DNA of 44,788 bases. Origin: Promethearchaeota archaeon (GTDB lineage: Archaea > Asgardarchaeota > Lokiarchaeia > Sigyniarchaeales > SOKP01). The DNA lies in the NCBI GenBank assembly GCA_004524535.1, contig SDNY01000012.1, positions 1 to 44,788 of the forward strand, read 5' to 3'. The translations under genes were made by a program, and so were the position numbers. Below, in pieces: positions 5,111 through 9,879 of this stretch. The notes below the pieces were generated by a model. The model made no database searches and had not been told where the DNA came from. It saw nothing but the letters and a program-made list of their open reading frames with translations. Numbering within the stretch: the stretch's first letter is position 1; the number at the start of each line of letters is the position of its first letter.

Positions 5111-6118
5111 TTGAATCCAGAATTAATTACAATCGGCAGCTGTACCCTTGATGTTATCATAGAGATAGATGACATATTACGTTTTGAATTATTCGATAAA
5201 GATATAATAAAAAAATATACCGCTATTGAATATTCTCGAAAGTTGAATGTTAAAAGTGTAAGATTCGTACCAGGAGGGTCAGGCTCAAATATAGCAGCAA
5301 ACTGTTCAATGTTAGGATTAAATGCATGTTATATTGGAATTTTAGGAAATGACTTCTCTGCCACAATATGTTTAGACGATTTAAGGAAGAGAGCGGTAGA
5401 TTTATCTCAAGTAGTTCAAACTGATAAGGATTCTACTGCTTTATCAGTAATTTTAAAAACTCCTTGGGGTAAAGATCGAAGTATTCTAGCATATAAGGGT
5501 GCGAACAATTTATTAAAACCGTCTGATGTTAAACCAGAATTATTTGGTGAGGTTAAGGCTTTTGCATGGACTTCTTTAACATCCGATACTGGTTGTCAAG
5601 CAATAGAAAAAGCAATAAAACTTACAAAAGATCATGGCGGAAAGATTTTTGCGGCACCAAGTATGTCAATTATTAAAAATGCTACTAATTGGGCAAAAAC
5701 ATTAATTTCCCAATCGGATGTGGTATCAATGAATATGGAAGAAGCTCAAGAATTCACGGGAAAAAAGAAAAAAACTTTAATGATAAAAGATTTTATAGAT
5801 ATGGGTGTTAAGTTAATTTCTATAACGGATGGTCCAAATGGGAGCATAATCTCTGATGGTGATACAATTATAAACAGCAGCATCTACACGGGTGATGTAA
5901 ATGATACAACTGGAGCAGGAGATGCCTTCCTTAGTGGAATTCTAGTCTCTATTCTGAATAATTTTAGTTTAGAAAAAATATCTAAATTGGCTACTGCTAT
6001 GTCCTTTTTGGAGTGCAAGGAGATTGGTGTTAGAGAAGGACTCCCTAAGAGTCTACAAGAATTAGAAACTTTTGTAGATACAAATACCCTTAACCAAGTT
6101 ATTTCTAAAGTAGTTTAA
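5111..6118 (+). CDS. PfkB/ribokinase family carbohydrate kinase
   Basis: PGGSGSNIA N-terminal signature, NMEEA, and DTTGAGDAF C-terminal signature. Confidence 0.92.
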   Translation: MNPELITIGSCTLDVIIEIDDILRFELFDKDIIKKYTAIEYSRKLNVKSVRFVPGGSGSNIAANCSMLGLNACYIGILGNDFSATICLDDLRKRAVDLSQVVQTDKDSTALSVILKTPWGKDRSILAYKGANNLLKPSDVKPELFGEVKAFAWTSLTSDTGCQAIEKAIKLTKDHGGKIFAAPSMSIIKNATNWAKTLISQSDVVSMNMEEAQEFTGKKKKTLMIKDFIDMGVKLISITDGPNGSIISDGDTIINSSIYTGDVNDTTGAGDAFLSGILVSILNNFSLEKISKLATAMSFLECKEIGVREGLPKSLQELETFVDTNTLNQVISKVV

Positions 6119-7969: not shown

Positions 7970-8276
7970 AAAATTAAAAAATTATTCTTAAACTCTAATA
8001 TCTCTTTAAGATGTATGTGAATAATATTACTATAAAAGAATTATTCTCTAAATATTAAATTTATTGATTGTAAATCATATTTTCAGAAAATAACCTCTTA
8101 TATGATTCATATAATCTCCTTTCTTAAAATGCGATTTCTATAAAATTTTTATCTTAAAAATGTATATAATAGAATTATAACATTTTATATAGTAAAAATT
8201 CCCAATTTATATTAAAATAAAAAAAAGGATTGGTGTTTTTATAATTTCCAAATCGGAACTTACTAAAAAAAAAAAC

Positions 8277-8534
8277 ATGAAAAAGGCTATTATAATAATT
8301 GCCGTTGTTGCTCTTTTAACGACTTTTTCAATAACGATAATTATTATTTATTTAAATAGTCAGTATTATGAAGGTGATGGCAAAGATTCAGATGACGATG
8401 ACAATAGCGCAGATGCCAGTGATTCTGGAGGAGGAGGCTGAGGATGTATTATCTTTAAGCAAGGCTTCTCAAGTTATAACCTCAATAAAATATACGGCAT
8501 TAAATTAATACAAATCCAATACCAAGTATTTTAA
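8277..8534 (+). CDS. Candidate small membrane-anchored selenoprotein (85 aa if TGA 8439-8441 is Sec; 54 aa if it is a stop)
   Basis: MKKAIIIIAVVALLTTFSITIIIIYLNSQYYEGDGKDSDDDDNSADASDSGGGG(TGA)GCIIFKQGFSSYNLNKIYGIKLIQIQYQVF*; SECIS-like hairpin just downstream; absent from the ORF track. Confidence 0.68.
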
Positions 8535-8563
8535 AAGAATAACCAAAAATCGCCCCGAATTGA

Positions 8564-8600
8564 ATGATTCTTACGAGAAAAAATGGAGTCGTAAGAGGAC
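8564..8600 (+). promoter_or_regulatory. Eukaryote-type SECIS-like element (3' UTR)
   Basis: ATGA-T-TCTTACGA-[GAAAAAATGGAG]-TCGTAAGA-G-GA-C: UGAN/NGAN tandem G.A core, perfect 8-bp stem, apical A-run. Confidence 0.72.
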
Positions 8601-8658
8601 TGACCTTTGCGAAGGTATCGGTGAAATAAAAATAAAAAATAAAAAATAAATTATAGAT

Positions 8659-9879
8659 CTATAATTTTTTTTCTCTTAACGCTCGAATCATAGGCAAGTC
8701 ATTTCCAGATAGAATTTCGAGCATGGCTCCACCTGCTGTAGATATGAATGAAACTTGATCATCTTTGCCAGACATTGCAGCCGCCGCTCCCATTTCCCCT
8801 CCGCCTATTATGGTTAAAGCTCCTTTTTTAGTGGCTTCCACCATTGCATCAACCATATCCATGGTAGCAGCTCTAAACACTTCTTTTTCAAATATGCCAG
8901 GAGGTCCATTTGCTACTATTGTTTTACATTTTAATATTACATCTTTAAAAGTTTCTACTGTTTTAGGTCCAATGTCCCCAGTGGTTGTATTTGCTGTTCC
9001 AGCTTCATCAATTGTAATCGCTTTTCTATTCCCATTATCATCAATAATTAAATCTTCAGGTAAGATTATCTTGTCTTTGTATTTATTATACGTTTCAATA
9101 ATCATATCCTTATTTGCTTCCAGATCCTTTGCCGTAATTTTAAGGTTAATCTCTCCCATGTCTTTACCTAACGCTTCAAAGATTAAGATAGCTGTTAATC
9201 CTGAGCATAAAGCATAATCTAATTTGTCATTGTCAAAATTGTATTTCATAGCTTTAAATTTATCGATTGCTTTTGCCCCTCCGATAAGCATCGCCATAGG
9301 TTTATCAGGTGCTTCCACTATTTTTTTTAAATTGTCTAATTCCTTATCAGTTATTGGGCCAGCTAGCATCTTAGGCCAACCTACGATAGATGCATGTGCT
9401 CGATGTGCTGCTCCAAAAGCATCCACTATAGCATAATCCACCAGGGGAAACAATGTCTTTATCAAATCAGTATTCTCTGCTTCGGAAAAATCTTTATATC
9501 CCTTCATTTCAGCTTCATATTTACGTATATTATTCAGTACTAAGACTTCTCCTGGTTTAAGATCTTTTATTGCATTGACAGCATCTTCACCATAAATATC
9601 CTTGACAAATTTTACGGGTTTACCAAGGAGTTTTTCGATTTCTTTAGCATGAATATCTAAATCGGTGAAATCATCCATACCTGGTCTTGATTGGTGAGCC
9701 ATAATAATTACAGCACTCTCATTGTAAATATCCTTCAAAAATGGAACCAATACTTCAATTCGAGGGGATTTGGTAATTTGCATCTTTTCTACATCTATGT
9801 TGGAATTGATATCCACCCGCATTATAAGCTTTTTTTTTTTTAAATCGACATCTTTATAGGATGTATAATCAATCTTCAT
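8659..9879 (-). CDS. pgk: Phosphoglycerate kinase
   Basis: RVDINS, AHQSRPG, DAFGAAHRAHAS, IGGAK, NGPPGIFE and STAGGA motifs. Confidence 0.95.
   Translation of the reverse strand: MKIDYTSYKDVDLKKKKLIMRVDINSNIDVEKMQITKSPRIEVLVPFLKDIYNESAVIIMAHQSRPGMDDFTDLDIHAKEIEKLLGKPVKFVKDIYGEDAVNAIKDLKPGEVLVLNNIRKYEAEMKGYKDFSEAENTDLIKTLFPLVDYAIVDAFGAAHRAHASIVGWPKMLAGPITDKELDNLKKIVEAPDKPMAMLIGGAKAIDKFKAMKYNFDNDKLDYALCSGLTAILIFEALGKDMGEINLKITAKDLEANKDMIIETYNKYKDKIILPEDLIIDDNGNRKAITIDEAGTANTTTGDIGPKTVETFKDVILKCKTIVANGPPGIFEKEVFRAATMDMVDAMVEATKKGALTIIGGGEMGAAAAMSGKDDQVSFISTAGGAMLEILSGNDLPMIRALREKKL

Follow-up and report, generated by a model that had tools for sequence, protein, structure and literature searches.

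The closest described relatives of the RNA element reported here are the lokiSECIS of Mariotti et al. (2016, PMC4989117), selenocysteine insertion sequence (SECIS) elements in which AUGA precedes a 9-bp stem, the apical loop starts A-rich and ends in AG, and GA follows the stem. They correspond to the Asgard type I eukaryotic SECIS (eSECIS)-like structure of Huang, Xiao and Zhang (2024, PMC11227280), whose model accepts a stem of 7 to 15 bp with at most two mismatches and a loop of 8 to 20 nt; among the elements of Mariotti et al., those of PrxL, VhuU, and HdrA-VhuD have loops of 11 nt. According to PMC4989117, standard SECIS models miss lokiSECIS, and UGA codons very near the element act as stops. 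The Asgard selenoprotein families named in the published texts are SelD, VhuU/FrhA, HdrA, VhuD/FrhD, Prx-like, AhpF-N-like, and DsbA-like, and all seven were found by homology to known families or through pairs of selenocysteine (Sec) and Cys (PMC4989117, PMC11227280, PMC13188914). According to our analysis, the 44,788-nt contig SDNY01000012.1 of a Promethearchaeota archaeon, hereafter the window, very probably carries a lokiSECIS at 8555 to 8621 on the plus strand, located in the 3′ untranslated region of a gene at 8277 to 8534, where it would direct the insertion of Sec at the in-frame UGA 8439 to 8441. As an RNA signal, the element is of a kind already published; the novelty concerns the gene that it would serve and a third arm, which the texts consulted leave undescribed.

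The core of the element is formed by AUGA at 8564 to 8567, which is the defining motif in PMC4989117 and is invariant in two alignments of such elements, and by GA at 8598 to 8599, followed by C8600, at a place where members of the SECIS family carry either GA or AA. The two halves are proposed to build the tandem G·A/A·G pairs of a kink-turn, a geometry that we infer. Helix II and its apical loop lie between them at 8568 to 8597, with 8568 to 8576 paired to 8589 to 8597 according to both RNAfold and covariation. The nine pairs contain no mismatch: U8568 and UCUUACGA (8569 to 8576) face UCGUAAGA (8589 to 8596) and G8597, the closing pair being U·G. The apical loop GAAAAAAUGGAG (8577 to 8588) has 12 nt and reads G-AAAAAA-UGG-AG, its A-run being shifted by one inserted G in the covariance-model alignment. 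On the 3′ side, the third arm, H3, is the hairpin ACCUU-UGCG-AAGGU at 8603 to 8616, which is found by RNAfold and by pairing across sets of 17 and 23 elements. CCGA at 8555 to 8558 can pair with UCGG at 8618 to 8621 to give the closing helix H1, whose 3′ strand covaries with its partner among orthologs. The unconstrained minimum free energy (MFE) fold from RNAfold contains the main stem and the second hairpin. A first-pass annotation of this DNA had placed AUGA, stem, loop, second hairpin, and CCGA/UCGG, and all of these positions proved correct in the sequence.

In its AUGA, 9-bp stem, A-run, terminal AG, and GA, and in its position a few tens of nucleotides past the stop of a UGA-bearing open reading frame (ORF), the candidate is like lokiSECIS. 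Its 12-nt loop lies within the 8 to 20 nt of Huang et al. and is one longer than the 11 nt of Mariotti et al. The gene, unlike those known to be served by lokiSECIS, falls outside the seven Asgard selenoprotein families of the published texts.

This assignment is carried by the comparison with other elements of the same genome. The host assembly (3.66 Mb, 30% G+C, 99% complete; the window is its contig C37) was scanned with a pattern of AUGA, a stem of 9 bp, an A-rich loop with a terminal G, and then GA or AA, which gave 840 loose matches and, after filtering, 23, eight of which form one evident family. Six of these eight sit 1 to 13 nt past an ORF with an in-frame TGA, the genes before them being hdrA-vhuD (twice), vhuD, selD, whose element begins 11 nt after the stop, and two unassigned TGA-bearing ORFs. 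The candidate is the seventh, with the TAA of its ORF (8532 to 8534) ending 29 nt before AUGA, and the eighth, C103b, follows an ORF without TGA. A covariance model trained on seven own-genome elements with the candidate left out (R1) gave 46.9 to 57.7 bits for the training elements, 40.8 bits for the candidate, 35.3 bits for an element behind vhuU, and no more than 24.4 bits for any other match among the best 150 of 7,224 first-look candidates in the genome. Run through the window with filters off, R1 scored the candidate at 40.8 bits against 16.5 for the runner-up, and on the plus strand only. The vhuU element is the ninth of this genome, and the stop codon of vhuU is the UGA of AUGA itself, as is described for VhuU.1 in PMC4989117; a UGA close to the element also serves as stop in the related genome G005, and in both cases this is as in lokiSECIS.

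A second model (R2), which represents a full three-way junction and was trained on 13 elements without the candidate and its orthologs, placed the candidate at 64.7 bits, within the 60.7 to 78.7 bits of its eight own-genome training elements, while the top non-member reached 27.1 bits (best 150 of 9,232 first-look candidates). The orthologs of the candidate scored 47.1 to 74.6 bits. That top non-member, C195:2112-2192, lies within an ORF without TGA and is a probable false positive. When 150 genomes of the class were sampled, R2 matched in all 125 genomes of the host's family, with 1 to 14 matches per genome, in 2 of 13 genomes of one sister family, and in 0 of 3 of another. The eukaryote-like core, apical adenosines, and short upper stem noticed in the first-pass annotation thus turn out to be those of published lokiSECIS and match models trained on elements of selD, hdrA-vhuD, vhuD, and vhuU. 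Of the checks suggested there, the covariance model returned the candidate as a family member with both R1 and R2, and the search for similar hairpins found them past selD, hdrA-vhuD, and vhuD of this genome.

The lower part of the element was examined in 17 elements, nine from this genome and eight from relatives. The other elements likewise continue past GA with a few bases, a hairpin of 4 to 6 bp, and a strand that pairs 3 to 6 nt upstream of AUGA; CCGAA/UUCGG, the counterpart of H1, is present in G005 and in vhuD elements. Unconstrained folding yields a three-way junction in 10 of the 17, and a fixed rule finds it in 15, against 3.7 ± 1.6 (maximum, 10) in 300 shuffles of the flanks. In a MAFFT alignment of the set, to which no structure was fitted, 79.1% of cells are paired (54.0 ± 2.0 when shuffled), and the covariation score is 0.639 versus 0.189 for shuffled alignments, a value reached in none of 500 shuffles, with slid controls at 0.13 to 0.21. 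Helix II is 92.1% paired with changes on both sides in all nine pairs, H3 is 82.9% paired with such changes in four of five, and H1 is 56.9% paired, a low value because its register shifts. A model-fitted alignment of 23 elements, which is structure-biased by construction, shows 82.1% pairing for the whole, 94.2% for helix II, 86.7% for H3, and 61.6% for H1. Among four distinct ortholog elements, 6 of 18 pairs have changed on both sides (four of the nine in helix II, one in H3, and one in H1, where G-C is exchanged for A-U), against 0 to 1 in slid controls. As judged from these alignments, the additional hairpin on the 3′ side and the closing pairs CCGA/UCGG both exist, and the elements as a group form a three-way junction. 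The branched lower part suggested in the first-pass annotation is thereby borne out, since hairpin and closing helix recur in other SECIS with compensatory changes. Side hairpin, closing helix, and junction go unmentioned in the running text of PMC4989117 and PMC11227280, whose figures or supplements may show them, and, as judged from titles and abstract openings, the papers found by literature search report neither a three-armed SECIS nor a small membrane selenoprotein of Asgard archaea.

Since AUGA...GA is a generic kink-turn signature, the element might instead be a regulatory or stabilizing 3′ element bound by L7Ae, or part of a C/D-box small RNA. Such a reading could draw on the fact that these archaea have no known SECIS-binding protein (PMC4989117) and on a weak C/D-box snoRNA-like match at 8388 to 8457 (18.8 bits, E = 0.54). 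This match is at chance level against a gathering score of 45, and it is located elsewhere, within the ORF. Moreover, the same motif, loop, and arms stand directly past selD, vhuD, hdrA-vhuD, and vhuU, and R1 and R2 score these and the candidate alike, which makes a kink-turn RNA of another function very unlikely.

The candidate resembles form 1 of the eukaryotic SECIS in its AUGA_GA quartet, its unpaired apical adenosines, its location in a 3′ untranslated region, and its presumed action at a distance on an upstream UGA. In eukaryotic SECIS, helix II is longer than 9 bp; that of the candidate, with 9 bp, is shorter, and its lower part is a three-way junction in place of a simple helix I. PMC4989117 likewise describes the eukaryotic stem as longer, in general terms. 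The candidate further differs in that no Rfam SECIS model matches it (E ≤ 10, 8200 to 8700) and in that no SBP2 is known in these archaea (PMC4989117). In the classical archaeal SECIS, a GAA_A bulge is flanked by a lower stem rich in GC and by a short upper stem of GC pairs (PMC4989117, PMC11227280), and 8550 to 8623 contains neither such a bulge nor GC-rich stems. The candidate has GAC, a point of likeness with the VhuD SECIS of Methanococcales and Methanopyrus (Mariotti et al., 2016); that euryarchaeal element is of the classical build, its GAA_A bulge and its GC-rich stems both being absent from the candidate.

The gene proposed to be served is an ORF of 85 codons plus TAA at 8277 to 8534 on the plus strand, which emerges from translation with TGA as Sec, from syntenic orthologs, and from an alignment of nine members. 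It begins with MKK, followed by a membrane helix, an acidic and Gly-rich linker, G-U-G-C (U denoting Sec), and a tail of 28 residues. Residues 4 to 26 (AIIIIAVVALLTTFSITIIIIYL, 8286 to 8354) form a hydrophobic stretch in a layout common to all relatives and are presumed to cross the membrane once, as a helix; since MKK precedes this helix and acidic residues follow it, the positive-inside rule predicts an N-in, C-out topology. The in-frame UGA at 8439 to 8441, residue 55, is the proposed Sec codon; the TGA is kept in G008, G005, G004, and G007, and 122 nt lie between it and AUGA on the same strand. A weak match of a fungal C/D-box snoRNA model, the chance-level one given above, is on the plus strand, with its CUGA overlapping this codon.

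In the nine-member alignment, whose members are 21 to 82% identical to the window protein, only G54, G56, and C57 are invariant. In four distinct orthologs, the frame stays open for 24 to 30 codons past the TGA, while after any TGA of the own genome the corresponding frequency is 0.09 to 0.14 for each. A word-indexed search of 5.8 billion proteins returned two relatives, and an exhaustive profile search of 1.84 billion representatives returned nine. Eight of the latter were inspected: four carry W at the UGA position, the gene caller having translated TGA as Trp, and the other four stop immediately short of it. The relatives from the word-indexed search conform to this pattern. No Pfam family scored above its cut-off for the ORF and three relatives, the matches being sub-threshold and membrane-helix-like.

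ORF and element travel together. The gene order tRNA-Val(−)/ORF/SECIS/pgk(−) is kept in G005, ORF and SECIS are also found together in G004 and G007, and the SECIS was found in five of five family members with DNA at hand. In G008, which belongs to the same genus, the locus is 91% identical overall. Differences between the two amount to 0 of 77 upstream (8200 to 8276), 11 of 144 in the ORF before UGA, where an 18-nt in-frame gap is the sole indel, 0 of 3 in the UGA, 7 of 90 in the ORF after UGA, 4 of 21 in the spacer (8532 to 8552), and 1 of 72 in the SECIS; the divergence of the coding part is 7.6 to 7.8%, and the stop of G008 comes four codons earlier. Nowhere in the locus is change faster than in the stretch from the TAA to the SECIS (8535 to 8554). 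Contigs of related strains, which cover the region in pieces, one data set reaching no further than 8213 to 8248, come from two other metagenomes where they differ from the window: the acidic linker has gained 12 nt in frame, and the spacer varies at 8540 and 8542. The two contigs that reach into 8546 to 8619, DNA fragments of low depth, are both identical there. The joint retention of ORF, G-U-G-C, and SECIS in syntenic orthologs agrees with the first-pass annotation, which had assigned the hairpin to the TGA upstream on the same strand.

Several observations weigh against this assignment, and the first of them concern the RNA. The closing helix is no longer than 4 bp, and the MFE fold favors a neighboring register in which 8550 to 8554 pair with 8620 to 8624. 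The loop has 12 nt and a leading G where the published set has 11 nt; other loops beyond 11 nt are those of C103b of this genome (12 nt) and of the vhuD element of the related genome G009 (13 nt). Fold stability is unremarkable: the energy of −16.9 kcal/mol (z = −1.13) is matched by 29 of 200 shuffles. No Rfam family matches the element between 8200 and 8700 even at E ≤ 10, the 10 matches being at chance level and none of them a SECIS, and at the gathering score, tRNA-Val is the only Rfam match in the whole window, without any SECIS. Because fold stability and public RNA models are uninformative, the case rests on the comparison with other SECIS elements. Each whole-genome model search, in addition, scored 150 first-look candidates only. 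The modest z-score and the 840 loose occurrences of AUGA, a stem, and GA or AA in the genome are what one would cite for a chance hairpin in AT-rich DNA, to which we assign a practically negligible probability in view of the 64.7 bits of the candidate against 27.1 for the top non-member in 3.66 Mb (among the 150 R2 candidates scored) and of the compensatory changes across four distinct orthologs.

The remaining observations concern the gene. A Cys form at the UGA position is absent from the relatives returned by the searches of 5.8 billion and 1.84 billion proteins, of which eight of the nine profile relatives were inspected, so the classic test by Sec/Cys pairs is unavailable; Sec-only families exist, and such a pair is not required of a selenoprotein. 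Past the UGA, the window and G008 differ in six codons, and each of these six changes affects the protein, one being the earlier stop, whereas before the UGA six synonymous changes stand beside four codons that change the amino acid; the tail would therefore be weakly constrained. Finally, one of the nine SECIS-like elements of the genome, C103b, follows a 224-residue ORF without in-frame TGA, so a SECIS alone is no proof of a selenoprotein gene.

Some of these points also favor the serious rival, according to which translation truly ends at the UGA 8439 to 8441, giving a membrane peptide of 54 residues, and the element is an orphan SECIS or a fossil, a leftover copy of the vhuD type or one that acts weakly. 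It is serious because C103b, behind an ORF without any TGA, is an apparent orphan SECIS in the same genome; the protein-altering changes past the UGA and the earlier stop in G008 would fit it, as would helix II, which nearly equals that of the vhuD SECIS of G009 (88% over 39 nt). We consider it unlikely. The G and C right after the UGA are invariant in the nine members while the rest is variable, the frame past the TGA is open in the four distinct orthologs, and the SECIS is placed after the extended stop in every case and never after the UGA. The SECIS is also the best-conserved part of the locus, and in 12 of 12 SECIS-bearing small ORFs of other genera, described below, a Cys stands within four residues of the UGA.

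As for the neighbors, the SECIS occupies the 124-nt gap between convergent genes, its partner across the gap being pgk at 8659 to 9879 on the minus strand (PF00162, 320.6 bits). Archaeal transcription terminates at oligo-T tracts. The A-rich tract that separates the SECIS from the end of pgk (8624 to 8650 on the plus strand), which on the minus strand puts T runs directly past the pgk stop, is thus likely the oligo-T termination signal of pgk. The placement in this gap would also suit a terminator or 3′-end hairpin, either of the convergent pgk, confirmed as such by PF00162, or of the small ORF. The tracts are on the wrong side for this, since on the minus strand the T-rich tract precedes the hairpin and on the element's own strand an A-rich tract follows, and no terminator-like site was found on either strand between 8100 and 8800 (shuffle mean, 0.4). 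The models match the plus strand only, the same element stands past unrelated genes with no pgk nearby, and the compensatory changes keep three specific helices together with an unpaired AUGA/GA core. A terminator is accordingly a highly improbable explanation, and the possibility raised in the first-pass annotation that the hairpin is nothing else than the terminator of pgk falls with the lack of such a site. Upstream, the 77 nt before the ATG (8200 to 8276) are 100% identical in G008 while the ORF differs by about 8%, so that a promoter or 5′ leader under constraint may lie here. At about 8184 to 8214, TTTATATA and TTTATATT are TATA-like.

When we inspected the genome for the selenocysteine machinery, selD was found with one in-frame TGA, at the usual FGUSCKLG site, along with genes for SepSecS (484.8 bits), SelB (245.6 bits, cut-off 242.25), and a PSTK-like protein (144.4 bits, under the cut-off of 290.5). 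RF01852 detected no tRNA-Sec in the own genome, its three sub-threshold matches being Arg, Ser, and Gly tRNAs, nor did ARAGORN with the intron search on or off, and across the genus, RF01852 scored above its cut-off in none of nine genomes. A tRNA-Sec candidate of G008 (44.2 bits, anticodon UCA), used as a DNA query on the own genome, located a 99% identical copy adjoining the SepSecS gene (C188:21790-21905, minus strand; L136:1464-1579). In G008 the gene is uninterrupted, whereas the T arm of the own copy is longer by about 30 bases, which points to a noncanonical intron in the predicted tRNA; RF01852 and ARAGORN miss it because the T arm is interrupted. ARAGORN found 9 tRNA genes without and 12 with the intron search in this 99% complete genome, and many tRNA genes of the host are probably interrupted or unassembled.

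For the preferred reading, that of a lokiSECIS serving the UGA at 8439 to 8441, the following course of events can be proposed. The closing helix CCGA/UCGG would carry two arms, the SECIS proper and the 5-bp side hairpin, the former with the AUGA...GA core expected as a kink-turn, the 9-bp helix, and the A-rich apical loop ending in AG. The element would recruit the archaeal SelB/EFSec, loaded with Sec-tRNA(Sec), to the mRNA, either directly or via a kink-turn-binding protein, and the ribosome would then read the UGA as selenocysteine and not as a stop. The predicted product of 85 residues would consist of an N-terminal membrane anchor, an acidic and glycine-rich linker, Sec-Gly-Cys, and a short hydrophobic tail, and it is probably an outward-facing, membrane-tethered selenol/thiol redox or metal-binding peptide. 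In SELENOK and SELENOS, which are about 90 residues long, a membrane helix at the N-terminus is combined with a disordered segment rich in glycine, and Sec is located toward the C-terminus. The likeness lies in the layout only, with no sequence relation claimed; unlike them, the product would extend about 30 residues past Sec, carry a Cys two positions on, and, from its predicted orientation, face outward and not the cytosol.

A profile of the four orthologs, which selects for helix and linker and not for the SECIS or the position of Cys, was searched in 153 genomes of the order. TGA-bearing matches were obtained in five of the nine genomes of the genus, the own one included, and in two genomes of another genus. 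Outside the ortholog group, 12 of 25 returned loci are closely followed, on their own strand, by a SECIS that R2 detects (L052, L053, L055 to L059, L061, L062, L065, L066, and L068). All 12 belong to other genera of the family, and in each a small ORF starts with a hydrophobic helix, continues with an acidic linker, and has its UGA no more than four residues away from a Cys, in the motifs CKRU, CKIU, CDIFU, CFU, ULC, UPNIC, and CPPU. At several of these loci, the ORF runs into the SECIS at its end, and in L057 and L058, as read from the printed sequence, the place of AUGA is apparently taken by GUGA.

A more far-reaching proposal, which we regard as possible and, with all of its parts taken jointly, as rather doubtful, is that the element marks an extensive, uncatalogued superfamily of membrane-tethered micro-selenoproteins in this Asgard family. 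Its members would combine an N-in anchor, a flexible linker that is acidic or glycine-rich, a Sec/Cys pair (UGC, ULC, UPNIC, CFU, CKxU, or CPPU), and a SECIS of their own; they might act as a surface layer for selenol/thiol redox chemistry or metal handling, and the third arm might dock an archaeal SECIS-binding factor, the counterpart of SBP2. A search that starts from the SECIS side reveals further genes that are very small, lineage specific, without Cys relatives, and cut at the UGA by gene callers, and since it yields genes that are not listed, Asgard selenoproteomes are probably undercounted. The three-armed fold, present in all of the sampled genomes of the family, also provides a sharper search model than the published description, which is limited to the hairpin.

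Two further loci of the host genome deserve mention. On the minus strand of contig C103 (locus L013), two SECIS lie 1.3 kb apart, with AUGA at 8933 and 7651. A frame of 164 residues, in which two UGAs adjoin (...DSGCUUEQV...), precedes the first. The second, C103b, follows the 224-residue ORF mentioned above, which is Cys-rich (CGFCGTCGGG...), ends in TAA, and contains no UGA; this second SECIS could be an orphan or a second SECIS of the upstream gene. On the minus strand of contig C36 (locus L010), a strong SECIS with AUGA at 5717 and 66.5 bits under R2 stands 4 nt past an unassigned 126-residue frame with one in-frame UGA (...YYSSDSUTMAFCGN...), which represents a second unlisted selenoprotein candidate.

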